NCBI GenBank assembly: GCA_963754845.1 | Contig: CAVWHE010000006.1 | Location: 15,035 to 79,034, forward strand | Source of the DNA: an uncultured bacterium | GTDB lineage: Bacteria > Babelota > Babeliae > Babelales > Vermiphilaceae | Direction of reading: 5' to 3' | DNA: 64,000 nucleotides | Part shown: positions 520-20,835 of the stretch, one piece after another | How positions within the stretch are numbered: the stretch's first letter is position 1 | Layout: every line of letters begins with the position of its first letter | Notes under the pieces: generated by a model | Told to the model about the DNA's origin: nothing | Database searches by the model: none | Seen by the model: only the letters and a program-made list of their open reading frames with translations | Made by a program: the position numbers and the translations under genes

Positions 520-566
520 AGCAAAGTTACCCTTCGATTAAAAGCACGACCTTGAGCTGCCAGCCG

Positions 567-2927: not shown

Positions 2928-2975
2928 ATCTTAGAGCAATTCTCAAAAAAATTAAGCTTCCTTTTGTTTAACACG

Positions 2976-4307: not shown

Positions 4308-4356
4308 GGCAATTTTTATGCCCACGGCATTGCCGCAAAAAATCTTCACAACGTTC

Positions 4357-5430
4357 CTAAACATTGTGCAAAAAATAGTACCACGAACAAAGGAATCCAA
4401 CATGGAGAAAGGTGTAGACGAGACCTTTGAGCACAATAATGAACGGCTTAAGCTCAGCGAGTCGTATGAGAAAAATGGCAAGGGAAAAAATAATGAGCGT
4501 AGCCGTCAAAAAGAAAATAAAGACCTTGTCAGACAAAACAAAATAGCCAACTTTGGGCGACATGCCCTCGATGACAAAACGGTAACCCAGAAGCGCCGTC
4601 ACGCCGGCTGAAGCCAGCCCAAAAACGATCGTTGGATACCTTCGTGGATCAAGCGCCAAGGAAAAGAGACTTAAAAAGTAAATCATAAAGAGTGGCAAAA
4701 GTATGAGCATTGCATTGCGGAACCCAATGCGCCGCATACGCATTGAAAAAACCGCGCAGGGCCGGCTGATATTTCTTTTGGTTTCGTATTCATCGATAAC
4801 GATCTCTCGCCAACCAGTTCTTATCGAAGTGCCAAGAAGAAGCCACCCAATACGCTTTGAGAGTGCCGGCGAAAGCTCAAAGAACGGCGAATACGACCTA
4901 AAGATCATTTCACTGGGCACGGCTTTGTTATTGACAAGGACGAGGTCGATGCGGTGCGCATCGAAGGGAAAGAAGGCATAATCCATATCCGATTTAAAGC
5001 GCACACGGACGGTATAATGTGCAAAAAAGCGACCATCTACAACTTGAACACTCGGTTTTGATTGATGGATAATCTCGCCCTTTTCAAAGGAAAAGTTGCC
5101 AACGGTGCTCAGAGAAATAAGGGCGGGATCAAAACCAAACCAGAGCCCACCATCAAAGGTAAAATCACTGTTAACAAAATCGAAGGTGGGGAAATTTGTG
5201 ATGTACAAGCCGACGCTTACCCGTATCGGCACCCCTGCCCATTCCTTCACCATGCCAGGCGTCATCGGTGTCAGGAGAATTTCTTTTTCGGTTCCCACGA
5301 GTCGCGTGCAAGGACGATACGCTATGAGAACGGCAACAAGTGAGACTATGAGCATACCGATGACTTGGGGCACCGGGTGAGTAATGCGACCAAGAAGTCT
5401 CACCGGGAAAGCATCGCACGCTGATACCAT
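4357..5430 (-). CDS. Pentameric ligand-gated ion channel (Cys-loop receptor superfamily, GLIC/ELIC-like) homolog
   Basis: 357 aa. The extracellular-domain pattern is PIRVSVGLYITNFPTFDFVNSDFTFDGGLWFGFDPAL. The loop motif is MDYAFFPFDAHRIDLVL (compare FPFD.Q.l.l). Four hydrophobic helices follow: AMLILLPLFMIYFLSLFSLAL; IVFGLASAGVTALLGYRFVI with the PKVGYFVLSDK pre-M3 pattern; VFIFFLTATLIIFSLAIFLI; and IIVLKGLVYTFLHVGFLCSWYYFL. Confidence 0.6.
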   Translation of the reverse strand: MVSACDAFPVRLLGRITHPVPQVIGMLIVSLVAVLIAYRPCTRLVGTEKEILLTPMTPGMVKEWAGVPIRVSVGLYITNFPTFDFVNSDFTFDGGLWFGFDPALISLSTVGNFSFEKGEIIHQSKPSVQVVDGRFFAHYTVRVRFKSDMDYAFFPFDAHRIDLVLVNNKAVPSEMIFRSYSPFFELSPALSKRIGWLLLGTSIRTGWREIVIDEYETKRNISRPCAVFSMRMRRIGFRNAMLILLPLFMIYFLSLFSLALDPRRYPTIVFGLASAGVTALLGYRFVIEGMSPKVGYFVLSDKVFIFFLTATLIIFSLAIFLIRLAELKPFIIVLKGLVYTFLHVGFLCSWYYFLHNV

Positions 5431-5494
5431 AAAAATCGAGCCCCTTCACTCTGTGCGCAACCGAAAAGTGCCCTGCCGACTGCGCCGATTTCAT

Positions 5495-8400
5495 TCACAC
5501 GCTATATTCCTGCCAGGGACCTTTGCCAGGATCAATCCATATCTTATTAATGAGCCAGCGCCGCCCACTATTGAAAGACAAAGTGATTCCGCCCAGGTCG
5601 ACATCGACACAGGCTTCGGCTGCCTTAATTATTTTTTCGTTAGTCACCTTGCCATCAATACCTTGTATGAACCTCGTAAAGATCCGTGCACTTATGTAGG
5701 CTTGGAATGCAAGAGGATCCACAGCTATGCCGTTGCGCTCAGCAAACTTTCTAAAATCCTGCGCTATGGGCAGCGGTGATTCTGCAGGATTGGCAACGAG
5801 GCTTATAACAGAATACCTTATGCCACGATCCTTACAGTATTGTTTGAGATCGTTGGTATTGGTGAATCCGGACCCACCGACAAGGGGACACCGTACAAAA
5901 AAATCGTCGCCAAGTTCACGTATAACCTCCTTGGCAGCAGTTTGCGTGCCAAAGATAACGAGAACGTCGGGCGATTCGTTTTTAATTTTTTGCGCATGTA
6001 CGGAAAAATTGACGTCGGCCGATGTGTAGGGAATATCGACGCACGTGACTGTTCCTTCCTTGGCCGCCTCTCTTTTGAATCCGTCGGTGTTGTAGGCAAC
6101 GGCATCAAGGTAAAAAAGGGCGGCTTTGCGTGGTCCGTAGTTGTGTACAACAAATCTATACATGAAGGCCCCTTCCTCGAAGCCCGAAACGCCGAAGTTG
6201 ATAATATTTGTTTGCAAACGCTCTCTATAGGATGGTGATTCACTTATGGGAAACAGAACAATAAGATCGCCCCTCATGACCAGATCAAGGTACCGCTGAA
6301 GCGTGGGGCTACCGACGGGAGTGAGAATAATGTTTGTGTGATACGTACTCCTGAGCTCTTGAACATTGCGGCGCGCCTGTTCGGGGACGTAACCATCATC
6401 AAGAACACGAAGCCTCACCGTACGCGCTCCCAGGACGTTGTCCCTATCAAGCTCACTAAAGTACGTTTCAAGAGTGGTTTTGATGAGAATCCCCTCAGCC
6501 CGAAGGTGCCGTGTGTAATCGAGAGTGCTTCCGACAAAAATAACCTCCCGACCCTCTCTGTCGACCTTTGCCGCCTCTTTCGATACTGCAACACCCTCTT
6601 TTAATGGCAGTTGTGCTGGAGCGTGGCTCTTCGTACCTTTGTCCTCGGGAGCCACCGACATCTGATGCTCCGAAGAGTCGCTCAATGAATACTCGTACCA
6701 GGGGCCCGATCCTGGATCAATCCAAAATTTATTGATAAGGCGCCGCGTTGCAGGATCAAACGTCAGCGTGATCCCCCCGAGGTCGACTCCTTTGAGCTTT
6801 TCGGCGGCCTCTACAAGTGTTCTGCCTGTCACCGGTCCCTTGATCATACCCACAAGATGGGTAAACATTCGAGCGCTTATGTACGTTTGAAAGGCAACTG
6901 GTCCTTGGTCAATACCATGGTTGAGGGCAAACTCCTCAAAGTCTTGCGCAATCGGCAGATGGCACGTCTCATGGTCGGGAACGGTACTTACAAATGCGCA
7001 CGCAATGCCGCGGTCTTTGCAATATTTTTTGAAATAATTGACGTTGAGGAACGAAACAGCGCTCATGAGAGACCGTCCGGTCACAAAAGCGATGCCAAGT
7101 TCCCGTAAAAGTTCCATTGCCGGTGTAACATCACAAAAAAGCATGAGGATGCCGGGATCTTCTTCTTTAATTTTTTGTACCTGCGCCGCAAAATTTACAT
7201 CCGTTGGAACGTAGGAAACAGTCGCGTACGTCGCCGGATCCCGGTCCTTGAGCTTATGTTTTATTCCATCAAGGAGTCTGGGCGTCGTTGCCTCGAAGAA
7301 GACCACAATTTTATTGCGTTGTCCGTGAAGATCAGTGGCAAAATTATACATCGCCGCCCCCGACTCGAGGCTCGATATGCCAAAATTAACTATATTTTTA
7401 AAATTTTTTGCCCTAAAGATAGGTGATTCGCACAAGGGAAAAAGCACGGTAACACTGCCGCTTTTGACAAAATCAACGTAACGTGCGAGCGTAGGACTTC
7501 CAAGCGGTGTCAGAACTATATCAGTTTGATAGGACGAAACAAGCTCCTGAACATTGGCGCGTGCACGCTCAGGATCGTACCCGTCGTCGAGAACGCGGAG
7601 CTTAACCTTCTTGCCGTGCGACAACCGTGGATCCTTGTTGAAGTCATCAAAGTACGCCTCCAGCGTAACCTTAATGAAGGTTCCCATGATCTTTTCACTT
7701 TTAGTGAAATCGAGTGTACATCCTACGTTAATGACCTCCTGCGTAGTTTCTCGATGTTTCGGCTGCCCAGGCTTTCTTGGAGTCGCGCTGATGCCGCTAT
7801 CGGATCCACGGCCGACATCAATCTTGACGGTTTTTCCCTGTCCGAAATTAATCCACAACACGCTTGAAAGTCTGTGATGATAGTTATCAAAATCCAGGAG
7901 CATTCCACCAAAGTCAAAGGTGCGCATGCTTTCAAAAGACTTAATGAGCGCCCCTTTCGTGATAGGCCCGGGTATGCGCTTAACGGCCTCGATGAAAATG
8001 CGTGCACAGAGATACGTGGAAAGCGACAATTGGTTGATGTCGACTCCCGCCTCTTCCATATCTTTTCGATATTCCTGAATGATGGGAAGATTGCTGTAAT
8101 GCGGATCAGGCAGAGCGATACTCGAGATTAATTTTCCACCCCGCTCTTCAATAACCTTCCTCACGCTGTCAACGCTAAAAATGGACGGGGCAAAGAACAC
8201 TTTTCCGCGGACGAGCGAATCCGGCAGTTCGCGGAGGAAGGCGCGCGTAGGAACGTCAGGTGATAAAATGCCAACGCAGTCAAAATCGAGGTTTCGCACG
8301 GCGTCAAGTTGTTTCTCAAAGTTTACATCATTTTTTTCGTGGGTAATTTTTGTTACGGGAATATTTTTCTTCTCAAAGTAAAGGGAAATTGGGTTGGTCA

Positions 8401-10237
8401 GTTCTTCGACGGTACCCCCCTGAGCAAAAAGGACGACAGAGCGCGGATTTTCATGCTCGATAACATAGGGCACAAGGAGGCTAAGATCCTCTAAAAACGA
8501 AGGTCCAAAGTAAATGGCATAATCAATTTCGGGCGAACGTAGTCGGGGGTCGGCCGTGAGGGGAAAAAGAACGACAAGCTTGTGCTCCTTAACCAGCTTC
8601 AGACACGTCGCGAAAGCCTGGGGAGCAAAAGGCATGAATATTACGTCTGTGTTATATTTTGTCAGCAGAGTTTGCACGTTTGCCACTGCATTTTCAGCGC
8701 TGTATTGATCATCAAGAACGCGCCAGTTGATCGTCGTATTCGGTAATGTTCCCACTTTACGTGCCTTGTCAAAAACAAATTCCGTAACCTTGCTGATTAC
8801 CGTGCCGTAATTTTGGGCACCACGTGTGAGATCGACACTTGTTCCAAGAGATACGACGCGCTTTTCGGCAGTTACGCGCCCTTCAAGAGAAACTTTCGGA
8901 TGCTGAAGTGTCTTGGTTCCGCGATCTTTGATAACTCTTTCTACTTCTTCGTGACACGCGGCGAGGGACTTCTGGGCCGTGTCAAGTTTTTCCTCAAGAA
9001 CACTTCTTTCTGCCGTGGCGACGTCAATCTGTTCCAGCGTAACGTCGTGCGAACTTTCTGGTTCGCCAGTTGCAAAGTTGAAAGATGCTCGCGGTACGAG
9101 GGGACCATGCCTCCGGATATCTCTGCTGTAGAGCGTCAACGTCCACAAGCGTACACGAGCAGCCGTGTCAATAACGACAAAGGCCTCAGTCAAGAAACGG
9201 CACGCCACGCGATTAAAACCCACGGGACCCGATTCAAGTCTCCAGACTGTCGTTGCCCGCGTTGGATGAGCTACGCGCGCCCCGCTCGCCCGATGTGCCT
9301 GGCGGGTCGAGCAGCGCTCCCCCGTGACGCGAACGACGACGGGCTCGGCTGCCGCCGCGCTTTTCGGTGCCCCTCTTTCTTCGCCATTAACAGGGACAAT
9401 AGTACTATGCTGATCGCCGAAGGAGTCGACGTGCCGTGCTTCGTCAAATTCATAGCTATCAAGAGCTCCGTTGTCGACCTTAACAAGGTCAATGGCATGC
9501 TCGTTGCCAGTCACGGCACAGTAAAGAGCAAGGGGGAAAGTCTCTAAAAAGCGATCAATGATCTCGGAAACCACCGGCACATTAAGGCCACATGCCGTGC
9601 CTGCAATCTCAGTCCCCAGAGTGTTCTTTTTCCACGCTCCCTTTGCCTCCTCGTCGCCCATGATCGCCACAACATTGCTGGGATTTTCTTCCATGAGACG
9701 CGCACCAAGAAGAAGCGTATCAATGCCGTATGCCGAACCGACAAAAGTGTTGCCATTGAAAACTATGTAGACGTTTTTTTGGATTATTTTGAAATCTTTG
9801 TCAATGATTTTTTGTGTAATGAGAATATCAAGGTACCGTACGAGGGACTGAAAGGCTCCATGAAGGCCGGTGATGATGATGAGGCGCGCCCCAGGAACAG
9901 GCCGCAGCACGTAAACATGCTCATTTTCATGGCCAGCGGAAACACGTTTTTCAGTGAGCTTTGCGAGCCTTTTTTCAATAACCGATGGACTCCATAAGCG
10001 CGGAGAAAGACCGATAAATTCAAGCATACGTTCACGGAAATGCGGAGCTCGCCGAACGTACACGTTGCTGAAGTCCGGAGCGGTCCAGTCATCGCCGGCC
10101 GACCAGGGATGTTCATCAAGAGACTCCGCATAGACCTTCACGTCATCAAACGAGCCCCAGAGGGACACGGTTGACAAAGGCGCGACCTCCACCACCTCCG
10201 TGCGGCAGGATACGGCGGCGGCGAGCACGGCAACCAC
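5495..10237 (-). CDS. 1580-aa multidomain protein: degenerate PPP-phosphatase-like module, coiled coil, three tandem type-1 periplasmic-binding (LivK/ANF-receptor-like) domains
   Basis: This is a single uninterrupted ORF. The N-terminal module carries ITGLHG / NGNTFVGS / MGDEEA at the PPP motif positions (nt ~9450-9900). A coiled-coil segment (LEEKLDTAQKSLAACHEEVERV) follows. Then come three ~340-aa repeats at nt ~7800-8865, ~6690-7740 and 5498-6548. Each starts (V/I)xxG(T/C/S)(S/T)(V/L)D(L/F/Y)T, contains LRVLDDGY(D/V)PE(R/Q)AR.NVQEL...Y.T.I.LTP.GSPTL, and ends W(I)(N/D)(F/P)G.G. The start codon as listed is GTG, and MVAVLAAAVSC ends in a lipobox-like AVSC. Confidence 0.8.
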   Translation of the reverse strand: MVAVLAAAVSCRTEVVEVAPLSTVSLWGSFDDVKVYAESLDEHPWSAGDDWTAPDFSNVYVRRAPHFRERMLEFIGLSPRLWSPSVIEKRLAKLTEKRVSAGHENEHVYVLRPVPGARLIIITGLHGAFQSLVRYLDILITQKIIDKDFKIIQKNVYIVFNGNTFVGSAYGIDTLLLGARLMEENPSNVVAIMGDEEAKGAWKKNTLGTEIAGTACGLNVPVVSEIIDRFLETFPLALYCAVTGNEHAIDLVKVDNGALDSYEFDEARHVDSFGDQHSTIVPVNGEERGAPKSAAAAEPVVVRVTGERCSTRQAHRASGARVAHPTRATTVWRLESGPVGFNRVACRFLTEAFVVIDTAARVRLWTLTLYSRDIRRHGPLVPRASFNFATGEPESSHDVTLEQIDVATAERSVLEEKLDTAQKSLAACHEEVERVIKDRGTKTLQHPKVSLEGRVTAEKRVVSLGTSVDLTRGAQNYGTVISKVTEFVFDKARKVGTLPNTTINWRVLDDQYSAENAVANVQTLLTKYNTDVIFMPFAPQAFATCLKLVKEHKLVVLFPLTADPRLRSPEIDYAIYFGPSFLEDLSLLVPYVIEHENPRSVVLFAQGGTVEELTNPISLYFEKKNIPVTKITHEKNDVNFEKQLDAVRNLDFDCVGILSPDVPTRAFLRELPDSLVRGKVFFAPSIFSVDSVRKVIEERGGKLISSIALPDPHYSNLPIIQEYRKDMEEAGVDINQLSLSTYLCARIFIEAVKRIPGPITKGALIKSFESMRTFDFGGMLLDFDNYHHRLSSVLWINFGQGKTVKIDVGRGSDSGISATPRKPGQPKHRETTQEVINVGCTLDFTKSEKIMGTFIKVTLEAYFDDFNKDPRLSHGKKVKLRVLDDGYDPERARANVQELVSSYQTDIVLTPLGSPTLARYVDFVKSGSVTVLFPLCESPIFRAKNFKNIVNFGISSLESGAAMYNFATDLHGQRNKIVVFFEATTPRLLDGIKHKLKDRDPATYATVSYVPTDVNFAAQVQKIKEEDPGILMLFCDVTPAMELLRELGIAFVTGRSLMSAVSFLNVNYFKKYCKDRGIACAFVSTVPDHETCHLPIAQDFEEFALNHGIDQGPVAFQTYISARMFTHLVGMIKGPVTGRTLVEAAEKLKGVDLGGITLTFDPATRRLINKFWIDPGSGPWYEYSLSDSSEHQMSVAPEDKGTKSHAPAQLPLKEGVAVSKEAAKVDREGREVIFVGSTLDYTRHLRAEGILIKTTLETYFSELDRDNVLGARTVRLRVLDDGYVPEQARRNVQELRSTYHTNIILTPVGSPTLQRYLDLVMRGDLIVLFPISESPSYRERLQTNIINFGVSGFEEGAFMYRFVVHNYGPRKAALFYLDAVAYNTDGFKREAAKEGTVTCVDIPYTSADVNFSVHAQKIKNESPDVLVIFGTQTAAKEVIRELGDDFFVRCPLVGGSGFTNTNDLKQYCKDRGIRYSVISLVANPAESPLPIAQDFRKFAERNGIAVDPLAFQAYISARIFTRFIQGIDGKVTNEKIIKAAEACVDVDLGGITLSFNSGRRWLINKIWIDPGKGPWQEYSV

Positions 10238-10496
10238 GAAAATCGTGGGTGGCTGGCCACGTCGTGGCTGGCCACGTCGTGGTGGAACACATAGGGGGGG
10301 CGAAAAAGCTATGTTTAATGCTCTTCATCATGCTACCGACGCTTTTACAAAAACTGCTAGGTTGCGGAGGCATAAAAGCATGCGCACCGCTGCACCTGCG
10401 CAACATCATCCGCTTGCCCACTTCACCGTCAAGTCTTGTATATGCCCACATGAAAAAGCAACAAAAAAATGGGCGGAGCCAAGAGGGCCCTCTGCG

Positions 10497-12827
10497 GGAG
10501 CGCCAGGGGATTGTCCAACTCCCCTTGGATCCACAAAGGCAATAACAGCAAGAGTCCTCTCTGAAGAACGCCCTGCGACAGGGGGAAGGCCCTATGCGGG
10601 AGGCACCAACAGCCTGTTGGATCCTATTTTAAGAGAACCTCTGTGGGAGTGAATGCCCTATGACTGGGGGAAGGCCCTGCGCGGGCGGCGGAATTAATGC
10701 CCTACGCGGGCATGCGCCAAAGGGAGGGTTGCGCCGCCCAACCTCCCTCTGGACTCCCAAGGGCGCCAACAGCCTGTTGGATCCTCTCCCGCGCGGTTAT
10801 CCACGACACGACTTAATGGCTTGCCTTGCAGGGCAAGACAAACCATACGTCGGTCATGGGACGCGCTACCGGAAGCGCGAGGCGCGCACAGACCAAGGGG
10901 TGGTCAACTCCCCTTGGATCCCCAAAGGCAATAACAGCAAGAGTCTCTCTGAAGAATGCCCTGCGACAGGGAGAACGCCCTATGCGGGCGGCGGAATTAA
11001 TGCCCTATGCGGGCGGCACCAAAGGGAGGGTTGCACCACCCAACTCCCCTTGGATCCCAAAGGCAATAACAGCAAGAGTCCTCTCTGAATGCACTATGAT
11101 GGGGAGAACGCCCTATGCGGGCGGCGGAATTAATGCCCTACGCGGGCATGCGCCAAAGGGAGGGTTGCGCCGCCCAACCTCCCTCTGGACTCCCAAGGGC
11201 GCCAACAGCCTGTTGGATCCTCTCCCGCGCGGTTATCCACGACACGACTTAATGGCTTGCCTTGCAGGGCAAGACAAACCATACGTCGGTCATGGGACGC
11301 GCTACCGGAAGCGCGAGGCGCGCACAGACCAAGGGGTGGTCAACTCCCCTTGGATCCCCAAAGGCAATAACACCAAAAGCTTGTTTTGAATGCCCTGCGA
11401 CAGGGAGAACGCCCTATGGCGGGCGGCGGAATTAATGCCCTATGCGGGCGGCACCAAAGGGAGGGTTGCGCCGCCCAACCTCCCTCTGGACTCCCAAGGG
11501 CGCCAACAGCCTGTTGGATCCTCTCCCGCGCGGTTATCCACGACACGACTTAATGGCTTGCCTTGCAGGGCAAGACAAACCATACGTCGGTCATGGGACG
11601 CGCTACCGGAAGCGCGAGGCGCGCACAGACCAATCCCGCGCGTATATCCATGACACGACTTAATGGCTTGCCTTGCAAGGCAAGACAAACCATACGTCGG
11701 CCATGGGACGCGCTACCGGAGGTATACCTGAATGGCGCGCGGTGAGCGCGCGCAGGTTGCCAGCAATTCTATGAAAATTCACGCGAAAATAATCCAAAGC
11801 AACCAGATCGTGGAAAAATATTTTCCGGCAATCGCTGATGTTCTGCACCGGTGTTAGCCGCTTTTATGCAAGAGGTCTGCCTTCTATGAATGTGCCTTGG
11901 TATCATTCCGGTAGCGCGTCCCATGACCGACGTATGGTTTGTCTTGCCCTGCAAGGCAAGCCATTAAGTCGTGTCGTGGATAACCGCGCGGGAGAGGATC
12001 CAACAGGCTGTTGGCGCCCTTGGGAGTCCAGAGGGAGGTTGGGCGGCGCAACCCTCCCTTTGGTGCCGCCCGCATAGGGCGTTCTCCCTGTCGCAGGGCA
12101 TTCAAAACAAGCTTTTGGTGTTATTGCCTGGGGTCTCCAAGGGGAGTTGACCACCCCTTGGTCTGTGCGCGCCTCGCGCTTCCGGTAGCGCGTCCCATGA
12201 CCGACGTATGGTTTGTCTTGCCCTGCAAGGCAAGCCATTAAGTCGTGTCGTGGATAACCGCGCGGGAGAGGATCCAACAGGCTGTTGGCGCCCTTGGGAG
12301 TCCAGAGGGAGGTTGGGCGGCGCAACCCTCCCTTTGGTGCCGCCCGCATAGGGCGTTCTCCCTGTCGCAGGGCATTCAAAACAAGCTTTTGGTGTTATTG
12401 CCTGGGGTCTCCAAGGGGAGTTGACCACCCCTTGGTCTGTGCGCGCCTCGCGCTTCCGGTAGCGCGTCCCATGACCGACGTATGGTTTGTCTTGCCCTGC
12501 AAGGCAAGCCATTAAGTCGTGTCGTGGATAACCGCGCGGGAGAGGATCCAACAGGCTGTTGGCGCCCTTGGGAGTCCAGAGGGAGGTTGGGCGGCGCAAC
12601 CCTCCCTTTGGCGCATGCCCGCGCAGGGCATTAATTCCGCCGCCCGCGCAGGGCCTTCCCCCAGTCATAGGGCATTCACTCCCACAGAGGTTTTCTTAAA
12701 ATAGGATCCAACAGGCTGTTGGTGCCGCCCGCATAGGGCGTTCTCCCTGTCGCAGGGCATTCAAAACAAGCTTTTGGTGTTATTGTCTGGGGATCCAAGG
12801 GGAGTTCGGACAATCCCCTGGCGCTCC
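10497..12827. repeat. 2.3-kb composite imperfect palindrome (mosaic of GC-rich hairpin modules in tandem units); non-coding
   Basis: The left arm (10497-11720) and right arm (11907-12827) are reverse complements, and their outer and inner ends match. The marker CTTAATGGCTTGCC occurs at 10812, 11248, 11549 and 11659 on the plus strand. Its complement occurs at 11960, 12234 and 12508. Confidence 0.85.
11908..12455. repeat. Two exact-period 274-bp tandem units of the right arm (a third, variant unit starts at 12456)
   Basis: CCGGTAGCGCGTCCCATGACCGACG recurs at 11908, 12182 and 12456. Identical 76-aa phantom ORFs appear at 12011..12241 and 12285..12515. Confidence 0.85.
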
Positions 12828-12873
12828 CCGTCATAGTGCATGTTAGCGATAAGGAACATTTAATGTGTGACCA

Positions 12874-14598
12874 CTATACAGTACAACGCAACGCTGCTTG
12901 CCAAACGGCAACATCAGGGTACGCACTGCCCGCGCTCGCCGATCCTGCTGCGCAGTACACGCAATCACCTGAACACGCGCACCAGTCGACGGCGTTAACA
13001 GCACTATTAAACTGCGCCCCTGCGATGGCCTTCAAAACGTGCTCATGCGGGGCCCGTTCATAGATGATAACGTTGGCCTGCTGTCCGAGCGCGTTGTCTA
13101 AAATTCCGGCAGCGGCCAGATATTTACACGGACAGCTCGGGTACCAAGCGACGCTCTTGATGCTTTTAAGACCATTTGCAGCCATCGTTGCACTTGCAAA
13201 CTCTTTGAGCCCAAGATCATTGGCCAGAGCGTAAAGAACGACGTTTTTCCCCTGCGTATTTGCCGGCGTGCAACCAACGGCAAGAATGGGCATATTCGGG
13301 CACGTGGCACCGGGACAGCACCAGGAAAGCATGTTGACAGCCCCGGAACAGCACCGTTGGGCAATCGGGCTCGGTTGCCCGATATCGGAGGCCGCTGCAT
13401 CGGTAAAGGCGTACACAAAGATGACGGGATTGGCGCACACGGGGACCCGTTTAACACGGCACGGCGCAGAACCAGAACGGTCGCCATCGACCGACCTGCC
13501 GGTGCTCGTTGTAGCGACAGGTGAAACATTTTGAAAAAAGTGTTGGCAACACGGCCACGTTGAGCCGTTGGAACAACATAGAGTTTGATTGGACTGGCAG
13601 TAGGCCATATTGGCACAGTTGCAGCACGGTCCGCCCGGCCCTGACGGCGTGCAGCACGCCGCGCTGTTGGTCGTGCAGTAATCGTTATGTGAACAAAGAC
13701 ACGCAAGAGTCTCCTGACACGCAGGATTGCTGCAGTTGGGAGTTTCAGGGTCGCACGGCGTGCCGCCGGCTGCTAATAAGGGCGGGTATCCCGCTCTGCA
13801 GCACCACGACAGCGCCATAACCGTGACGGGGGTCTGAAGAGAGTACGTCGGATCGTCAGAAATGCAGGACTCGGAGTTGTTATAAGGGGGGCCGTAAAAG
13901 GAGAGAACGCGCGCTGTTGCTCCGTCAGTTCCTGCTGTTCCCCCGATGGCCAGGCAAGCGAGGTCAATGGCATCGTCGGTGATATCGGGGACGTACGCAC
14001 CGCACGACCTACAAAGCCACGCGAGAGAATACAGAGGAGCTCCGTGAGTATAGCCGGTAACGCAGTCAAAAGCGAGATCGCCCCCTAGCGTATCAAGCAC
14101 ATATACGAGCACATCGCCCGTGGCACCGCTGCCGAACGACCCGTCGGTAAGGTTGGAACCGGCAACGGCAAGATAGTACAGGTCATCGCCAGCGTAACAC
14201 CAGGCAAGGGCGTTGACAGTATTTCCCGTAGCAATTGTCAGCGCCACATCCAAGCTCCCGGTATCTGTATCGATCGTATAAATACGCACCGTTGCCCCAT
14301 CGATGGGACTTTGAACACCACCGATAGCGAGCGCACAAAAACTCATACCGGTATCGTCGAAAAAAGCGTTGGCCGGGCAACACCAGGCGACAGCATTCAC
14401 GTCGGCACCGTGTATCTCATTGTATTTATAAAGGAGGCTCCCTGAATGGCCGCAGGAACGTGAAAGCAGCTTTGGAGCAGCGCTGTCCAACGGAGTGCCG
14501 GCCCAAAAATACGTTGGTACAAGAGAGAGCAAAACTATCGCGTAACAAAAACCGACACCTAAAGACGCTGAAACCGAACCGTGCTTTCTGAAAACCAT
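12874..14598 (-). CDS. Cys-rich seven-bladed WD40-like beta-propeller protein with N-terminal signal/anchor and a ~75-aa Cys-knot insertion
   Basis: The ORF runs 12874..14628. The likely start is ATG 14598 (MVFRKHGSVSASLGVGFCYAIVLLSLV). Seven spaced copies of V.a.aWC......lA.gG are present: VNAVAWCC, VNALAWCY, LYSLAWLC, VMALSWCC, VNMLSWCC, IKSVAWYPSC, VNAVDWCAC. Between blades 4 and 5 lies the insertion CDPETPNCSNPACQETLACLCSHNDYCTTNSAACCTPSGPGGPCCNCANMAYCQSNQTLCCSNGSTWPCCQ. Confidence 0.6.
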   Translation of the reverse strand: MVFRKHGSVSASLGVGFCYAIVLLSLVPTYFWAGTPLDSAAPKLLSRSCGHSGSLLYKYNEIHGADVNAVAWCCPANAFFDDTGMSFCALAIGGVQSPIDGATVRIYTIDTDTGSLDVALTIATGNTVNALAWCYAGDDLYYLAVAGSNLTDGSFGSGATGDVLVYVLDTLGGDLAFDCVTGYTHGAPLYSLAWLCRSCGAYVPDITDDAIDLACLAIGGTAGTDGATARVLSFYGPPYNNSESCISDDPTYSLQTPVTVMALSWCCRAGYPPLLAAGGTPCDPETPNCSNPACQETLACLCSHNDYCTTNSAACCTPSGPGGPCCNCANMAYCQSNQTLCCSNGSTWPCCQHFFQNVSPVATTSTGRSVDGDRSGSAPCRVKRVPVCANPVIFVYAFTDAAASDIGQPSPIAQRCCSGAVNMLSWCCPGATCPNMPILAVGCTPANTQGKNVVLYALANDLGLKEFASATMAANGLKSIKSVAWYPSCPCKYLAAAGILDNALGQQANVIIYERAPHEHVLKAIAGAQFNSAVNAVDWCACSGDCVYCAAGSASAGSAYPDVAVWQAALRCTV

Positions 14599-14922
14599 AA
14601 CGTTGCCCTCTTTTTGAGGCGGTGGCAATCACGTGCTTCTTTTTCAAAAACAACAATCGCCGCACTCCGTTTTACGCTTCTCCATATGAGCTTGCGTGCC
14701 CAGACATGCCAAAAGAACCACCATCATCAGGATATGGCTTCCGGCCTTACCTTTATCAACGTAGTTTTGAAGTGCCATGGCATGGATCCCTTTTTTTGCA
14801 CGTCATCGTTAATTTTGGAACCTCGCGTATCTGCACTGTTATCACGATATCACAACGCCCAAGCACACCGAAACACTTAACTTTTAAGCGATGGGATTTT
14901 TGGCTTAAACAACGAGAATTTT

Positions 14923-16012
14923 TTAGCGTGGCTTTGGTACAAGGTCTTTAAGTGCCTCGTCGGCGAGCTCTTTCAATTCATCCTCACGTGCCTGTTCATA
15001 GGTGAGTCTCTTGAGATCTTTACCGGATGAGTCACGAAAGACAATGCGTGTTTCAGGAACACGAAGATGGTTACCCGACCACTGAGTTTTTTGAAGCGAC
15101 ATAACGATCCTGTGGCGCGTCATGAGCTCGGCCACGCATGGAAAATTCGACTGCGAGCGTATGAGACAATCAAAGTGCGTAAGGACAAGCATATCGGTAA
15201 GGATGCTTCTTTGGTCTTGTTTGTTATTGCGACTGTAATCCCACATAATTGTTGATCCTGGAACGCGCGTTTTAAACCTTTCAAGAAGGGCCGCTGGATC
15301 TTTGTCATCGGTGAAAATACAGATGTAGAGCGGCCGTTCGCCGATAAGGCGCACGAACCTGCGCAACTGATCGACGTAAAACTGTTCTGGGGGAAATTTC
15401 ATGGGCCATCCACCGTCGGCTCCAGAGCGGTGAGCTTCAAAAAATTGCTCCGAATATTGCGTCGACCCTAGGGCCGGATCGCCACCGGAACCTTTGCGCA
15501 CGTGAACAGCAACCGAAATGCGACCTTGAGGGATGACGGGAGCAGGTACGGCAACGATAGGCTGCAGCATAGCTCGGTATTTTTTCGTAAATGACGGGCT
15601 CACGTACAACGGCGTCACAAATACCTTGTCCGCACGAGGTGGCAATGGCAAGTATCGAAGATTCGAAGGCATCAACGGGGGGTATTTCCCTTATGACAAT
15701 TTTATGCGCATAGCCTCTTTCAAAGCCCGCGGGGCGCGGTTTCTCATACTTCGATAGCGCAAAGTAATCATGCCCACGAAAGGGCTTGAAAAAAAACGGG
15801 ATGTCATACTTGAGTGAAATATATTTTGCTACGCAGTAGAACAAAAGTTGGTCCCCGAGACGGCCTCCTCCTTCGTGTGTAATGGCGATGTTTCTTTGTG
15901 CCACTGGCTCGCGGACACCGCACGAGCTGTGGACAACCATCACAAACATACCAGAAATGATGACAACACAGACCAGAGTGGCACCAATCCTTCGCATGTT
16001 TTCTTGTTTCAT
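14923..16012 (-). pseudogene. GT11-like glycosyltransferase (alpha-1,2-fucosyltransferase family pattern) split by a frameshift at a homopolymer
   Basis: The N-terminal ORF (15437..16096, likely start ATG 16012) carries HEGGGRLGDQLLFYCVAKYISLKY (compare GGLGNQ.FQYA). The C-terminal ORF (14923..15675) carries VAVHVRKGSGGD (compare HVRRGDY) and DMLVLTHFDCLIRSQSNFPCVAEL (compare DM.LMS.C...I.SNSTFSWW). The frames switch at REIPP | LMPSNL, exactly at the G6 run 15677-15682 (C6 on the coding strand). Confidence 0.6.
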
Positions 16013-16067
16013 AAATAGGATCTCCTTATTTTTGTTTTTTGACGGCCTTACTTGGCGTACGCGGCTT

Positions 16068-17222
16068 TCAGCACGATCCTCCTGTGTCGTGAGCATCAGC
16101 CATGAGTTCTATCCAAATTTCATTGAGAACTTTTTCTGGTATTTTCGCCCTGAAAAAAGCCATACGGGCGAACTGCGTGTCGGGGGGGCAAAATTGTTCG
16201 TTTTCGCTTTTTTGCAAGCGCCTGATCGGCGGGCACATACCGTAAAGTTCGCGGTGGCGCTCGAGGACATCGGCACGATACAGGTAATTAATAAATTCGT
16301 AGGCAAGATCGTCCTTGGTGCTTTTTCCTGCAAGAGCGAAAGAATCTATGACAACAAAACCCCCCTCGCGTGGAACGATAAAATCGATATAAGGATGGGT
16401 TTTTTTGATGCGCAAAACATCTGGTCCCGTGGCAACAACAACGGGACAACTCTGGCTTAAAAGGAGATTTTCGGCACCGCTTTCCGTGTACGCTTCGACC
16501 CACGCGCGTTGCTCAGAAAGTACTTTTTGTATCGCACGAATATGTTCTGAGCCAATTTCGTCTTGAGCTCCGAAGAGATAAAAACAGGCAAGGAGAACGG
16601 CCTCGCGGGCTGATTCGGGCATACCGACTGTCCAGGACACTTTGTTTTTGTCAAAAATAAGCCCCCACGAAGCCTCAGGAACCGGACCATTGCCATTGTT
16701 ATTGAAAAAACGCGTGTCAATCCCGAGGCCGTAAACTGCCCAAAGGTAGGGAAGAGTGTATTTGTTGCCCCTATCAAAATAAAGGTCAAGGAGCTTGCCA
16801 TCGAGTTCGTGCCAAAAACGGATTTTCGTTGTATCTATCCTTTTTATAAGGCCGTCATCAACGAGCGCCTGGACGATGTAGTCGGAGGGAATTATAATAT
16901 CGTAGCCTGTGCCACCTGTCGCCTTGAGTTTGCTAAAAAGCTCTTCATTTGTTTCGTAGTAGCTCACATTGACCTTGATGCCCGTCTCTCGCTCAAAGGC
17001 TTGCAAGCACGTATTGTCAATGAGCATGGGCCATGTGAAAACGTTGATGCTTCGCGAGCCTTTAAAAAGCTGAATTACGTGAGAGAATCCCACAAAAACG
17101 AGGAGTACGCAGAGCCAAAAAACAAACATCAAACTACGTACAGCAACGGTAGTCCAGTGTGTGCAGAGCATACGTAGTCTCCGAAGGATTACAAACATTG
17201 TTCCCGGCGCTGATATCACCAA
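16068..17222 (-). CDS. potD: Spermidine/putrescine ABC transporter substrate-binding protein
   Basis: It has an N-terminal anchor. A PotD-like block follows: INVFTWPMLIDNTCLQAFERETGIKVNVSYYETNEELFSKLKATGGTGYDIIIPSDY. It is the last gene of a potA-B-C-D ordered operon. Confidence 0.8.
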   Translation of the reverse strand: MVISAPGTMFVILRRLRMLCTHWTTVAVRSLMFVFWLCVLLVFVGFSHVIQLFKGSRSINVFTWPMLIDNTCLQAFERETGIKVNVSYYETNEELFSKLKATGGTGYDIIIPSDYIVQALVDDGLIKRIDTTKIRFWHELDGKLLDLYFDRGNKYTLPYLWAVYGLGIDTRFFNNNGNGPVPEASWGLIFDKNKVSWTVGMPESAREAVLLACFYLFGAQDEIGSEHIRAIQKVLSEQRAWVEAYTESGAENLLLSQSCPVVVATGPDVLRIKKTHPYIDFIVPREGGFVVIDSFALAGKSTKDDLAYEFINYLYRADVLERHRELYGMCPPIRRLQKSENEQFCPPDTQFARMAFFRAKIPEKVLNEIWIELMADAHDTGGSC

Positions 17223-17243
17223 AACTTAGTGTATCGCGAACGT

Positions 17244-18029
17244 TTACCCCGTGAAAGAAAAACCTTTGCGCGTTTGCATGAATGCCATGAGAACAATAAT
17301 AAAGCTCCCGAAACCAAGGAGGACAACCGAAAGAGCGTTGACCATAGGAGAGCCTCCCGCGCGTACGGCGGAAAAAATATAGAGGGGTAGCGTTTGCACC
17401 TGAGCCCCGGCGCAAAAAAACGCTATCAAGAAATCATCAAGCGATACGACAAAAATAAGAAGCGATGAGGCCACGAGCGAAGGAGTTAAAAGCGGGAGAA
17501 TAATTTTGCCAAATGTTTGCAGGTGCGTTGCCCCCAGGTCAAGCGAAGCCTCGCTGAGGTGTTTTTCAAGTTCAGCATACCGTGCATTGATCGTGGGGAC
17601 TGCATAACCGAGACCCAGGAGTGTGTGCCCGGCAATAAGGGTCGTGTAACCGAGTGGTACGTGAAGAAGCGAGAAAAAACCCAGAAGGCCAACGGCGACG
17701 ATAACTTCCGGAACAAGGAGGGCCCCGTAAAAGAGTGCAAAAAAGCGACGAAATCTATCGGGGCTGTAACACACAAGAAAAGCCGCCATCGTTATGCTGA
17801 GAAAGACGCTTGAAAGTGCAACAATGAGTGAATCACGCAAGGCAAGCCATGCTTGGCGTGAGGCAAAAAGCTGCACGTACCAACGCAAGGAAAAGCCTCC
17901 CCACTCGTAGGCCACTGATGAGGAACTCAATGAAAAAACGACAAGAACGGCGATGGGAACGTAGAGAAAAATAAAAAAAAGGGCAACGAACATCGGCAGA
18001 GCTACGCGTGAGCACGATGTGCTTTTCAT
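17244..18029 (-). CDS. potC: Spermidine/putrescine ABC transporter permease
   Basis: 261 aa with six hydrophobic segments. The BPD-transporter EAA-type loop is LEKHLSEASLDLGATHLQTFGKIILPLL. Confidence 0.8.
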   Translation of the reverse strand: MKSTSCSRVALPMFVALFFIFLYVPIAVLVVFSLSSSSVAYEWGGFSLRWYVQLFASRQAWLALRDSLIVALSSVFLSITMAAFLVCYSPDRFRRFFALFYGALLVPEVIVAVGLLGFFSLLHVPLGYTTLIAGHTLLGLGYAVPTINARYAELEKHLSEASLDLGATHLQTFGKIILPLLTPSLVASSLLIFVVSLDDFLIAFFCAGAQVQTLPLYIFSAVRAGGSPMVNALSVVLLGFGSFIIVLMAFMQTRKGFSFTG

Positions 18030-18041
18030 CTTTGCCTCTCC

Positions 18042-18914
18042 TTATGAGCCACGCGTTTTAACAACGCCCGCTTGCTTGCTTAAGTAACGGTATATAAAAA
18101 ACGACGCGCATACGACAACACAGCTACTTATACACGTAAAAGCCGAGCCCAGGGCAAAATTGCGCACCGTCAGATAGTAATACGAAATGAGCGAGCCGAC
18201 GAACATTTGTTTGCCTCCCCCCAGGAGCGCGGGGATAACAAATTCGCCAAAAACAGGGATAAAGACGAGAAAAAAACCCGTACGCACGCCCGGCGAAGAA
18301 AGAGGCATGATGACGTGAAGCCACGTTGCCCACCACCGCGCCCCGAGATCAAGTGACGCCTCAATGAGCCGCTCGTCGAGCTTTTCGAAAATTGCATAGA
18401 GCGGCAAAATCATGAAGGGAACGTAGCAGTATACCATGCCCACGTACACGGCCCACGGCGTGTTGAGTATGTGGACGGGGCTTCCGACAATACCGAGTTT
18501 CAAAAGAATGGTATTGAGAAGACCCGCGCGACCAAGCATAAAGAACCATGCGTAGGCCTGTATGAGAAGGTTGACGCTAAAAGGGAGCATGACGAGAAAA
18601 AGGAGGACATTTTTCCAACGCCGGGCACGGCGCGCAATGAAATAGGCGACAGGGTATCCCACGACAAGACATACCGTCGCCGTGGAAAATGCCAAAAAGA
18701 GCGACCGGCGTATGATGGCCAGGTAAGGCCAATCGATAAAGTTCACGTAATTGCCGAGACTCATGATGGAAAATGCCGATGTCGATGATGTCGTCACACA
18801 AAAACTTTGCGCAATAACCGTGGTGAGGGGAACGTAAAAAAAGAGGACGATCCAGGCAACCGCCGGCATGGAAACAAAAAACGCCACGTCCTTGCGCACT
18901 AAAAACTTGAACAT
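18042..18914 (-). CDS. potB: Spermidine/putrescine ABC transporter permease
   Basis: 290 aa. The EAA loop is LDERLIEASLDLGARWWATWLHVIMPLSSPG. It lies between potA and potC. Confidence 0.8.
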   Translation of the reverse strand: MFKFLVRKDVAFFVSMPAVAWIVLFFYVPLTTVIAQSFCVTTSSTSAFSIMSLGNYVNFIDWPYLAIIRRSLFLAFSTATVCLVVGYPVAYFIARRARRWKNVLLFLVMLPFSVNLLIQAYAWFFMLGRAGLLNTILLKLGIVGSPVHILNTPWAVYVGMVYCYVPFMILPLYAIFEKLDERLIEASLDLGARWWATWLHVIMPLSSPGVRTGFFLVFIPVFGEFVIPALLGGGKQMFVGSLISYYYLTVRNFALGSAFTCISSCVVVCASFFIYRYLSKQAGVVKTRGS

Positions 18915-18932
18915 CTGCGCCCCTACACATCT

Positions 18933-20048: not shown

Positions 20049-20835
20049 AGAAAATGGGAACTACAACATCCGACATTGAACATGGTATCACGACGGCAAT
20101 GATGAGAAAAATAAAAACAAAGCCGATGTCATGGTACCACGTGATAAAACCGTGCGAGACAAGGTAGAAGGCTGCCGCTAGCGAGCTCACGAGCGTGTGG
20201 ATGCTGTGGGAAAAAACCGAATACATGGGTTGCATCGACGTGCGATGCCTGCTCATGATAAAACCATTGGCAATGCCAACGCCAAGAAACGGCACAACCT
20301 TGGTTATATCGGTGACAAAGCAAATGTGAAGCCTCATGGGAACGCCCAAAAGTCTGCCACCAATGTAGGGTAAAAGTACATCCGACATGACGCAAAACGT
20401 TATGGGGCATACAACGGCCAGAAGAAGCGCCTGCCACACATTGCGCGAAAAGCGAAAGAACGTTATAACGGTCCCCGTTGCAGCAAAAACGATGTGCATA
20501 AAGTGAAAACTATGAAAGAGAATAGTGGCACCATCGCAGAGAGCTGCTTCATTGCGGTCGGCAACGAAGAAAAAACTTGCAAAACTCAGGATGACAAGAG
20601 CAAAAGCGACAGAAAAAATGGCATAGGGAACATGAGCCACCACCTCTTTGATGATGACGTGCGAGTCACAGCAATGTCGATGTCCACAGTGGTCGTTCAT
20701 GCCTTCCATGCTCCCGTAACCATGATACTGAACGCTGACGAGCGCCGATGCGTGCGACAACGCACAGCAACAATAGCGTTTTTTTGCCCGTAAATCAAAA
20801 GAATCGTGCAGAGCCCACAATGATGCGCTCTGCAC
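20011..20835 (-). CDS. Multi-pass membrane protein with His/Cys-rich N-terminus (possible metal-ion transporter)
   Basis: The N-terminus reads HCGHRHCCDSH. At least six hydrophobic helices follow, with conserved-looking His residues (LFHSFHFMHIVFAATG, FSHSIHTLVSS). I recognised no family with certainty. Confidence 0.45.
   Translation of the reverse strand: MQSASLWALHDSFDLRAKKRYCCCALSHASALVSVQYHGYGSMEGMNDHCGHRHCCDSHVIIKEVVAHVPYAIFSVAFALVILSFASFFFVADRNEAALCDGATILFHSFHFMHIVFAATGTVITFFRFSRNVWQALLLAVVCPITFCVMSDVLLPYIGGRLLGVPMRLHICFVTDITKVVPFLGVGIANGFIMSRHRTSMQPMYSVFSHSIHTLVSSLAAAFYLVSHGFITWYHDIGFVFIFLIIAVVIPCSMSDVVVPIFFAGTRGDGHEEH

Follow-up and report, generated by a model that had tools for sequence, protein, structure and literature searches.

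A 2.3-kb imperfect palindrome built of tandem GC-rich hairpin modules in the genome of a Dependentiae-like bacterium

REP and BIME elements of enterobacteria and pseudomonads (REPIN/RAYT) are intergenic, non-coding mosaics of GC-rich imperfect palindromes with short linkers. In BIMEs, copies of a single REP family (~20-40 bp) alternate over tens to a few hundred bp, and the elements are dispersed in hundreds of copies, often between co-oriented or convergent genes, where they can act in transcript stabilisation or termination. BOX elements of Streptococcus pneumoniae (boxA-(boxB)n-boxC) and NIMEs are a further modular class; to our knowledge, neither forms kilobase-scale inverted arrays. In eukaryotes, Foldback (FB) transposons of Drosophila and other hosts are demonstrably mobile, have conserved termini with target-site duplications and vary in unit composition from copy to copy. 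Palindromes kept uniform by conversion (plastid inverted repeats, primate Y-chromosome palindromes) and tandem-inversion duplications of Salmonella arise via template switching at short hairpins. Bacterial chromosomes rarely contain near-perfect palindromes of kilobase size, as these usually fall prey to hairpin-processing nucleases, and long palindromes are normally unstable in bacteria with SbcCD.

The locus described here lies in a window of 64 kb (the whole stretch of DNA analysed) and resembles each of these systems in part. It has the REP/BIME character of an intergenic, non-coding mosaic of GC-rich imperfect palindromes joined by short linkers, but it extends over 2.3 kb, its units measure 274-436 bp and its arrays are mirrored. 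With BOX and NIME elements it shares a modular grammar, a variable number of internal modules, strong predicted structure and an intergenic position, whereas their units are shorter than ~0.3 kb and highly dispersed. Long inverted arms of hierarchical tandem sub-repeats, inequality of the arms and a short unique loop are features in common with FB elements; in contrast to those, the termini of the palindrome are its most diverged part and lack a target-site duplication. Near-identical arms, a unique spacer and a uniform interior recall the conversion-kept palindromes and tandem-inversion duplications, although conversion-kept palindromes bear genes and are not made of hairpin tandem repeats.

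Architecture of the palindrome

The imperfect palindrome spans 10496-12828 of the window, a 2.3-kb stretch of intergenic repeat between two co-oriented (minus-strand) genes, and comprises a 1.22-kb left arm, a 186-bp unique centre and a 0.92-kb right arm (Table 1). An initial annotation had placed the outer ends where GGAGCGCC... begins at 10497 and ...GGCGCTCC finishes at 12827; the sequence reads accordingly, and one extra complementary base per side extends the inverted repeat. The same annotation described the arms as reverse complements, in agreement with a global alignment in which the left arm is collinear with the reverse complement of the right at 98-100% identity. The longest complementary blocks are 358 nt (98%), 274 nt (96%), 210 nt (99%) and 200 nt (100%), with weaker complementarity reaching 8 bp further into the centre, to 11728 and 11899. 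Arm-to-arm differences consist mainly of three module-sized insertions in the left arm, at 10991-11149 (159 bp), 11411-11436 (26 bp) and 11592-11701 (110 bp), together with 12 substitutions. The centre itself scores no better than shuffles when compared with its own reverse complement and shows no excess folding as RNA (z = -0.03 and -0.39), ruling out a hidden palindrome or structured RNA within it.

Each arm is hierarchical. Sub-repeats of ~21-24 bp, whose sub-motif copies are spaced 20-24 bp, make up eight hairpin modules (A-H) and an AT-rich module X, and these in turn make up units of 274, 301 and 436 bp; the module borders have GGATCCAA...TTGG in common. Every module listed previously was located at the kind of position described and is mirrored in the right arm. 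Tandem Repeats Finder (TRF) returned periods of 133, 274 and 301 bp, and the exact 274-bp period claimed for the right arm corresponds to a repeat at 11906-12611 with 2.6 copies and 100% matches. The marker CTTAATGGCTTGCC was likewise found at 10812, 11248, 11549 and 11659, giving the spacings of 436, 301 and 110 bp first noted. The account of the 301-bp unit as the 274-bp unit plus ~26 bp also holds: the difference is made up by the 26-bp insertion and 1 further bp.

R1 and R2 are identical, and an opening stretch of 158 nt is invariant across six copies of the unit, so that the array must be taken to have expanded or been homogenised very recently. Among the modules, domain A shows the strongest conservation. 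The X module (10621-10655 and 12673-12707) is confined to the outer block of each arm; since neither arm has such a block anywhere but at its outer end, the array predates its mirroring. Identity increases from edge to interior, being lowest in the flanking sub-motifs, 97.8% in the outer block (10566-10874 of which falls inside the 358-nt collinear block 10566-10923 / 12405-12762) and 98.6-100% in the inner blocks. Repeat-related sequence runs ~15-20 bp past each outer end, where the left and right edges derive from two different internal sub-motifs, and no target-site duplication is present at the borders (left flank ...CTCTGC, right flank CGTCAT...).

Table 1. Features of the palindrome and its surroundings, in window coordinates
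Feature	Position	Strand	Description	Basis or comparison
Left flanking gene	5495..10325	-	Large periplasmic-binding-domain lipoprotein; downstream in transcription direction	Pfam Peripla_BP_6, 2.9e-69
Promoter-like site	10405..10432	-	TTGACG-16-GATGAT, in unique DNA between palindrome and left gene	Consensus scan only
Left degenerate outer edge	10483..10495		Diverged D-type sub-motif GAGGGCCCTCTGCGGGA..., outside perfect inverted repeat	21/24 match to 10585-10608
Left arm	10496..11720		1225 bp; + strand order G' F E D B X E D D C B A; H G F E D D C/G F E D D C B A; H G F E D D C B A; H A'	
Left outer block	10496..10874		Carries AT-rich X module	Mirrored by 12454-12828
B hairpin + X module	10606..10655		Inward terminator-like site on + strand (CCAACAGCCTGTTGG ATCCTATTTT), overlapping outward promoter-like TTCACT-16-TAAAAT on - strand	Consensus matches only
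436-bp composite unit	10875..11310		301-bp type with internal ~133-bp duplication	TRF period 133, 2.2 copies
301-bp unit	11311..11611		274-bp unit plus 26-bp insert at 11411-11436	
Innermost truncated unit	11612..11720		H + variant A'	A' has 5-6 substitutions vs other A copies
Unique central spacer	11721..11906		186 bp; 170-bp core 48% GC; small hairpins GCGCGC-GGTGA-GCGCGC and GGAAAA-ATA-TTTTCC	
Right arm	11907..12828		922 bp; + strand order A B C D E F G H; A B C D E F G H; A B C D D E X B D E F G'	Reverse complement of left arm
274-bp unit R1	11906..12179	+		
Domain A	11906..11995	+	90 nt; imperfect ~36-bp hairpin, 5 G.U pairs on outward strand	
Other domain A copies	10795-10873, 11231-11309, 11532-11610, 11642-11720		Outward strand is -	
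Other domain A copies	12181-12259, 12455-12533		Outward strand is +	
274-bp unit R2	12180..12453	+		100% identical to R1
Right outer block	12454..12828		Extra C at 12807	Mirror of 10496-10874
Mirror B + X block	12673..12722		Terminator-like site inward on -; promoter-like site outward on +	Consensus scan
Right degenerate outer edge	12829..12849		Diverged E-type sub-motif, reverse complement ATGCACTATGACGGGGAG	26/32 match to 11082-11113
Right flanking gene (P0001)	12874..14598	-	574-aa Cys-rich repeat protein, function unassigned; upstream in transcription direction	

Two Logan short-read contigs from the same organism cover the flanks, L002 matching window 1-10525 and L001 window 12798-21621, and each ends 29-30 bp inside an outer end of the palindrome. 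Since both unique, non-mirrored flanks enter a common 30-nt terminal sequence in opposite orientations, an inverted arrangement is required, and this independent k-mer assembly supports the inverted outer junctions. The earlier argument that unequal arms speak against a simple fold-back artefact is thereby strengthened. The extra C that sets the right end apart from the left is missing from L001, and a 4-bp indel at 10249-10282 of the window frameshifts the left gene, whose product is 1580 aa in the window vs 1609 aa, intact, in the short-read contig, with a true start near 10325 (evidence from P0126 and L002). Interior copy numbers come from a single assembly, with small indel discrepancies sited in repeats.

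Coding status and occurrence elsewhere

The locus is non-coding: every unit length (274, 301 or 436 bp) leaves a remainder of 1 on division by 3, the ORFs in the arms have no Pfam match, and a comparison of these ORFs with 1.84 billion representative proteins returned only products of the same repeat, bar one weak chance match to an unrelated eukaryote-type repeat protein (P0130, E 1.8e-7). A protein-coding tandem repeat is ruled out by the loss of frame between units and the absence of homologues outside the repeat. These results bear out the initial view of a gap without credible CDS that is almost wholly repeat, and the conserved protein homologues of the unit that would have counted against that view are absent from the protein collection beyond same-repeat ORFs. 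The public annotation places two mirror-image 'hypothetical proteins' inside the arms, P0129 (10856-11386, +) and P0127 (12102-12668, -); both are spurious ORFs.

A third such spurious product points beyond the window. P0128 (228 aa), which the window does not encode, comes from a 633,769-bp contig (NCBI/ENA) and is built of the palindrome's modules, with 85 consecutive identical residues, a 366-bp unit format and a C-terminus that reproduces the H-to-A' inner junction, as at 11612..11720. As it is made of the same modules on another contig, this one protein record makes it probable that the palindrome belongs to a small repeat family with two or more loci in this genome.

Searches elsewhere were negative. 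No 14-mer of the palindrome recurs elsewhere in the 64-kb window, one isolated match aside, which excludes chance, and the 61.7 kb of flanking DNA contains no modules, sub-motifs or 14-mers apart from single chance matches at 17837 and 17916. The 25-nt conserved marker TTAATGGCTTGCCTTGCARGGCAAG had 0 matches in the genomes of 185,579 GTDB species, in the JGI metagenome and in viral contigs. Megablast of window 9000-15000 against a plasmid collection returned nothing, nor did the 274-bp unit match any phage or plasmid in a sensitive blastn search. An alignment of P0001 with three distant homologues led to no related locus in genome and metagenome collections; the protein collection contained no second assembly of this species, the next-best homologues being 66-67% (Der) and 49% (P0001) identical. 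Rfam 15 gave nothing in the region at the gathering threshold and, at E<=5, a sole match to c-di-GMP-II (18.3 bits vs a gathering score of 53.5). A literature search yielded nothing relevant on Dependentiae repeats and no described prokaryotic foldback element.

Two IS elements and ruvA are present in the window. The palindrome is not a MITE of a resident IS, as the IS inverted repeats (GTGTTGCACTTCA... and TAGGCCCTGTTGACTTTT) are unrelated to its ends. CRISPR arrays and integron cassettes were also rejected: unique spacers and ORFs are lacking from the locus, and the ORFs scanned include neither cas nor intI genes.

Predicted folding and transcription signals

Folding predictions differ between the strands. 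As RNA, the 274-bp unit R1 reaches -135.8 kcal/mol (z -5.2) on the outward + strand and -110.3 kcal/mol (z -2.7) on the - strand. For domain A the corresponding values are -49.7 kcal/mol (z -7.4) on the outward strand vs -34.1 kcal/mol (z -3.1) on the other, and a single structure accounts for 29% of the outward-strand ensemble. G.U pairs number 13 vs 5 (outward vs other strand) in the unit and 35-37 vs 16-23 in the whole arms; the outward strand is G+T-rich, which favours such pairs. Predicted strand asymmetry of RNA or single-strand folding as strong as this is not expected from a purely neutral DNA repeat.

The stop codon of P0001 is followed, ~150 nt further on, by the terminator-like site of the mirror B + X block, which has the right orientation to terminate that gene. 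The terminator-like and promoter-like sites of the locus are weak consensus matches, with a 6-bp stem and 9/12 hexamer positions, respectively. A consensus scan found no promoter-like site in the centre or within a unit.

Origin of the array and competing explanations

We consider the locus best explained, with a probability of about one half, as a non-coding, lineage-specific, higher-order array of hairpin repeats that was duplicated in inverted form and homogenised by recombination, and that probably acts at most as a transcription insulator. Short GC-rich hairpin sub-repeats of ~21-24 bp would have been assembled into the eight modules and the modules into 274-436-bp units, after which the whole unit array would have been duplicated, inverted, around the 186-bp unique core. 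Unequal recombination or replication slippage between modules may then gain and lose units, while arm-to-arm and copy-to-copy gene conversion would keep the interior 98-100% uniform and the edges decay. At the DNA level such a locus would be a hotspot of recombination and inversion. Rather than a gene, it probably represents a by-product, neutral or selfish, of the relaxed selection experienced by an intracellular bacterium rich in IS elements. Its likely effect in cis would be to insulate the two co-oriented flanking genes through the inward terminator-like hairpins and outward promoter-like sites of the mirrored outer blocks, and a transcript across both arms would be expected to fold into ~0.9 kb of double-stranded RNA. 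Among the roles first proposed, repeat accretion and recombination fit best, and an RNA array draws some support from the strand-asymmetric folding; a replication-related role is disfavoured because no GC-skew switch occurs. The lack of such a switch at 10-13 kb speaks against an oriC, a terminus or a fork trap.

The folding asymmetry would also suit an array of structured non-coding RNA genes or domains in which both arms are transcribed outward from the centre, yielding two transcripts of the same sequence, each a chain of ~274-nt multi-hairpin units in which the 90-nt hairpin of domain A predominates; such transcripts might act as a protein sponge or be processed into a small RNA. In unit and domain A alike, predicted folding of the outward strand is much stronger than that of its complement or of shuffled controls; this strand also carries the G.U excess, and conservation within the unit is highest in domain A. 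In the diverged A copy, A21 to G gives a G.U pair and G71 to A converts U.G into U-A, so that outward pairing is kept. We nevertheless regard this explanation as rather unlikely: two other substitutions in the variant copy disrupt a 2-bp helix, the placement of five of five transition mismatches on one strand has a chance probability of ~0.06, G+T richness alone favours G.U pairs, and a strand-specific single-stranded DNA hairpin would produce an equal signal. The absence of any Rfam family match even at E<=5 and of a promoter-like site in the centre and units (consensus scan) also weighs against it. Far less plausible is a protein-binding array, whether a DnaA-box cluster (origin or titration), a centromere-like or iteron array, or a fork trap of opposed sites. 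The motif TTATCCACG in each unit agrees with 8/9 DnaA-box positions, three copies on the + strand and three on the - strand lie mirror-symmetrically about a less GC-rich centre, and the 20-24-bp sub-repeat spacing resembles that of iterons. However, the six boxes amount to one independent event, a match with <=1 mismatch being expected in ~6% of 274-bp units, and the window as a whole is not significantly enriched in DnaA boxes (17 observed vs 10.7 +/- 3.3 expected). Cumulative GC skew drops steadily through the locus, the neighbouring genes are co-oriented, and a scan of window ORFs found no dnaA, par or rep genes nearby.

The initial annotation had likened the locus to REP/BIME elements. The likeness stands as far as a mosaic of short GC-rich hairpin modules and a giant imperfect palindrome are concerned; family membership does not, given eight modules in one orientation per arm and no module copies elsewhere in the 61.7 kb of flanking DNA. 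An intergenic position, GC-rich imperfect palindromes, modular mosaicism and the second locus suggested by P0128 would fit a REP/BIME (or BOX- or NIME-type) family member grown unusually large. This is very improbable, since each arm holds eight unrelated hairpins in fixed order and a single orientation instead of one alternating REP, module copies are absent from the rest of the window, the 25-nt marker is absent from the 185,579 species genomes and JGI metagenomes, and no gene of the RAYT type, a Y1/IS200-like transposase, was seen (Pfam or NCBIfam) among the ~41 window ORFs scanned. Reading of the palindrome sequence also revealed no dRS3-type (ATTCCC...GGGAAT) borders. A foldback-like, non-autonomous mobile element, in which the whole 2.3-kb structure would have moved or been copied between loci, has more in its favour and is still unlikely. 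Long inverted arms of tandem sub-repeats around a short unique loop match textbook descriptions of eukaryotic Foldback elements, one additional array with the same modules and inner junction is indicated on another contig by the P0128 record, and the genome contains active-looking IS elements; a literature search found no prokaryotic counterpart described. Against it, no target-site duplication is present, conservation is lowest at the termini, and the left and right edges come from different sub-motifs, the opposite of transposase-bound ends. Neither IS in the window has inverted repeats similar to those ends, no further copy was found in the 61.7 kb, and no transposase is associated with the palindrome. 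A broader proposal is distinctly unlikely, namely that the locus is a copy of a previously undescribed, self-propagating prokaryotic foldback-type element consisting of strand-specific hairpin modules only, with domain A, the 90-nt hairpin that folds well on one strand only, as functional core. Recognition of the modules would take place on the outward strand of either arm, in the form of single-stranded DNA or RNA, and the arms, long, unequal and made of tandem repeats, would remodel themselves and spread from locus to locus. It is improbable that the interior arrangement is an assembly artefact, with unit number and order or the palindromic join an arbitrary path through a collapsed repeat graph. 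The short-read contigs do break exactly at both repeat ends, all differences between window and contigs fall in repeats, and perfectly identical 274-bp copies exceed short-read resolution. Yet the junctions are independently assembled, module-sized indels and substitutions distinguish the arms from exact mirrors, arm sequence stands on both sides of the unique centre, and contigs of 80-634 kb suggest long-read data.

As a practical warning, the two annotated 'hypothetical proteins' in the arms are spurious. Inversion, unequal exchange and broken assemblies are likely to concentrate at the locus, at whose borders short-read contigs end. Domain A is a candidate for a new structured RNA or single-stranded-DNA module; else the locus may be what corresponds in bacteria to foldback elements. 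Coming from a phylum of obligate intracellular bacteria that has been little studied, the palindrome shows non-coding DNA building satellite-like higher-order structure in a small genome.

Layout of the palindrome and its support in independent contigs

Sequence reading, Tandem Repeats Finder and a repeat finder agree on the layout of the palindrome (window 10496-12828) and confirm the reverse-complement arms around a centre that the initial annotation had described; its marker and module positions proved exact. The 274-bp unit it had reported with an exact period in the right arm was recovered by Tandem Repeats Finder at 2.6 copies with 100% matches. Between the arms, complementarity is longest in blocks of 358 nt (98%), 210 nt (99%) and 200 nt (100%). 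Globally aligned to the reverse-complemented right arm, the left arm is collinear throughout; its extra length comes from three insertions the size of modules, together with a few indels of 1-12 bp. Across 829 aligned positions in the six long collinear blocks (short end blocks left out), the arms differ by 12 substitutions, 8 of them in the outer block. The palindrome and its repeat organisation are not attributable to chance.

Features of the palindrome and its flanks (window positions)
Feature	Coordinates	Strand	Length	Description	Basis
Left arm	10496-11720			reverse complement of right arm	sequence reading, Tandem Repeats Finder, repeat finder
Centre	11721-11906		186 bp	between the arms	
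Right arm	11907-12828			reverse complement of left arm	sequence reading, Tandem Repeats Finder, repeat finder
Left-arm insertion	10991-11149		159 bp		global alignment
Left-arm insertion	11411-11436		26 bp		global alignment
Left-arm insertion	11592-11701		110 bp		global alignment
Module A			roughly 90 nt	imperfect long hairpin	
Modules B, C, D, E, G, H				short GC-rich hairpins	
Module F				linker	
Right flanking gene	12874-14598	-	574 aa	upstream by transcription; Cys-rich repeat protein	
Left flanking gene		-		downstream by transcription; large protein with three Peripla_BP_6 domains	

Independent support comes from two Logan (k-mer) contigs of run ERR11594402, L002 matching window 1-10525 at 99.96% and L001 matching 12798-21621 at 99.99%, each of which ends 29-30 bp (k-1) within the palindrome. 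In their last 30 nt the two contigs are exact reverse complements of each other, so that one and the same sequence is entered in opposite orientations from two flanks that are unique and not mirrored, which is what a real inverted repeat requires. The far end of L001 lies at an IS, i.e. another repeat. The window differs from these contigs at two places only, both within repeats: an extra C in the window at 12807, and a 4-bp indel in a 15-bp tandem repeat at 10249-10282 (window 10237-10330), where L002 is 4 bp shorter. This indel, either an assembly error or a real variant of the short tandem repeat, frameshifts the 5′ end of the left gene, giving 1580 aa in the window vs. an intact 1609 aa in L002 (P0126), whose N-terminus is a signal/lipobox (MKSIKHSFF...VLAAAVSC). 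Given the junctions and the confinement of discrepancies to repeats, the large-scale structure is credible.

Modular hierarchy and a second array

On the + strand of the left arm, the modules of a unit run H-G-F-E-D-(D)-C-B-A. The D/E part is a run of sub-repeats of the form GCCCTNYG...GGG at a spacing of about 20-24 bp, and Tandem Repeats Finder detects an intermediate period of 133 bp; the structure is therefore hierarchical, like a satellite higher-order repeat. Both arms open on the outside with a special G'-F-E-D-B-X-E-D-D-C-B-A block, to which the AT-rich module X is confined. Inward of it, the left arm holds a 436-bp unit, a 301-bp unit and a truncated H-A' unit (A' being a variant of A), and the right arm two identical 274-bp units. 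Because the special block stands at the outer end of both arms, the order of modules implies that a complete array must predate the mirroring. GGATCC (BamHI/GATC-containing) occurs 13 times in 2.3 kb (10527-12791), always at module borders in the contexts …TTGGATCC… or GGATCCAA…, vs. 10 times in the remaining 61.7 kb, and may mark the microhomology behind module shuffling.

There is also a record of a related array, on a different contig. P0128, a 228-aa product not encoded in the window, is composed of the palindrome's modules, and 85 of its residues in succession are the same as in a reading frame of the window; a 366-bp unit is present in almost two copies, and the H-to-A' junction is the same as that at the left arm's inner end. 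It lies on a 633,769-bp contig, and the window proteins on one of 80,594 bp. No other assembly of the species was visible in the protein collection, where the next-best homologues are at 66-67% (Der) and 49% (P0001, the 574-aa flanking protein). Read most simply, these sequences mean that the genome contains a second array at another site, which P0128 reflects.

Coding potential and alternative readings

That the gap is non-coding, as the initial annotation held, is borne out. Since 274, 301 and 436 bp each leave a remainder of 1 on division by 3, the frame changes from unit to unit, and the arm ORFs have no Pfam match. The 188-aa arm ORF, which is P0127, was compared with 1.84 billion representative proteins; apart from itself it matched only its left-arm mirror image P0129 (10856-11386), the further repeat product P0128 and, by chance, one eukaryote-type repeat protein. 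These results rule out a protein-coding repeat; P0127 and P0129 in the window, and P0128, are spurious 'hypothetical protein' annotations. A known RNA family is ruled out by Rfam searches of the palindrome region, which gave no match at the gathering threshold and, at E<=5, a sole, meaningless 18-bit match. The 186-bp centre showed no self-complementarity, no promoter-like site and no excess structure vs. shuffled sequence.

Read as RNA, the outward strand (the + strand of the right arm and the - strand of the left) has much better predicted folding than its complement: -135.8 kcal/mol (z -5.2) vs. -110.3 (z -2.7) for the unit, -476 and -618 kcal/mol vs. -407 and -546 for the whole arms, and -49.7 (z -7.4) vs. 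-34.1 (z -3.1) for domain A, the module A hairpin, alone. The difference is due to G.U pairs, of which a unit has 13 outward vs. 5 on the complement, with five in the domain A stem of roughly 36 bp. Only one A copy is diverged: two of its stem substitutions preserve pairing on the outward strand, and two others disrupt a 2-bp helix. No other feature hints that selection has acted on a single-strand structure, be it RNA or single-stranded DNA, and this predicted asymmetry is suggestive without deciding the matter: the outward strand is G+T-rich, one lineage is involved, and the probability of finding all transition mismatches (5/5) on one strand is about 0.06. It favours an array of structured RNAs transcribed outward, a reading that remains rather doubtful given that there are no promoters and no family match.

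A foldback-like mobile element would fit the architecture and the second locus, but is unlikely, as there is no target-site duplication and the termini are the least conserved part. About 15-20 bp more repeat-related sequence extends beyond the perfect inverted repeat on each side, and the sequences past the two outer ends are diverged copies of two different internal sub-motifs. Arm identity climbs inward, being lowest at the edges, 97.8% in the outer block and 98.6-100% in the inner units, a gradient that would be expected of continuing interior homogenisation and not of sharply defined transposon ends. Interior copy numbers and some single-base arm differences rest on one assembly; an artefactual interior is improbable. 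Each unit has one copy of TTATCCACG, which agrees with the DnaA box at 8/9 positions; the six sites (10797-12531) are arranged symmetrically around the centre, the left arm having its three on + and the right arm its three on -. An array of DnaA boxes or other protein-binding sites is nevertheless very improbable, since mirrored boxes amount to one independent event and the locus has no GC-skew switch; the unit probably carries this match by chance. True membership of the REP/BIME family, to which the initial annotation likened the organisation, is highly unlikely, two defining features having been sought and both found absent. As a general kind, the intergenic hairpin-repeat mosaic is already known; the hierarchical, kilobase-scale, mirrored form had no sequence relative in any collection searched and no description in the literature open to searching. 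The palindrome is a real, unusual structure.

Origin, genomic setting and possible effect

What the sequence shows is a hierarchical array of hairpin repeats, non-coding and mirrored about a unique core, in which units have been duplicated very recently and module borders remodelled by indels. Growth and shrinkage by unequal recombination or slippage between modules is the most likely mode of change, with a single inverted-orientation duplication and with conversion between arms and copies maintaining uniformity. The window includes ruvA.

The window also carries der, dnaX, SRP RNA, tRNAs, TonB/ExbB, TolC-type efflux genes, several ankyrin-repeat genes and two IS elements, a content that identifies it as chromosomal DNA from a diderm bacterium that is probably host-associated. 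Among Der homologues with a name, the best are from Candidatus Dependentiae (TM6) and Babeliales (about 55-57% identity), and the nearest overall reach only 64-67%; by sequence comparison, the organism is a deep relative of Dependentiae that has been poorly sampled. Its GC content is about 51%, an unusually high value for this phylum. Ankyrin-repeat proteins are encoded at 31142-32587, 42614-43627 and 59833-60978, with 99-bp DNA repeats at 31.3-32.0 kb, and fit a host-associated, intracellular lifestyle. Of the IS elements at 21579-22749 and 36211-37062, one is of rve-integrase type and has imperfect inverted repeats of roughly 40 nt; a break of L001 at the border of this element shows that it is multi-copy. 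The second, a DDE element of IS4/IS5 type, has 18-bp inverted repeats without mismatch (TAGGCCCTGTTGACTTTT). The genome as a whole seems rich in IS elements.

In the 574-aa protein the motif ...AWCC... recurs and may reflect a propeller-like repeat. The protein belongs to no Pfam or NCBIfam family and has three homologues only, all distant (30-49% identity), among 5.8 billion proteins, none of them found in GTDB genome or JGI metagenome scans.

The most plausible effect on the cell is local, although confidence in any function is low. The mirrored B+X blocks each contain a hairpin followed by a T-run, facing inward, and a promoter-like site (TTCACT-16-TAAAAT) that faces outward; all are weak consensus matches. 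The right copy, about 150 nt past the stop codon of the upstream gene, is oriented so that it may terminate that gene; the left faces the downstream gene, whose own promoter-like site lies in unique DNA (10405-10432). Read-through across both arms would produce about 0.9 kb of double-stranded RNA.
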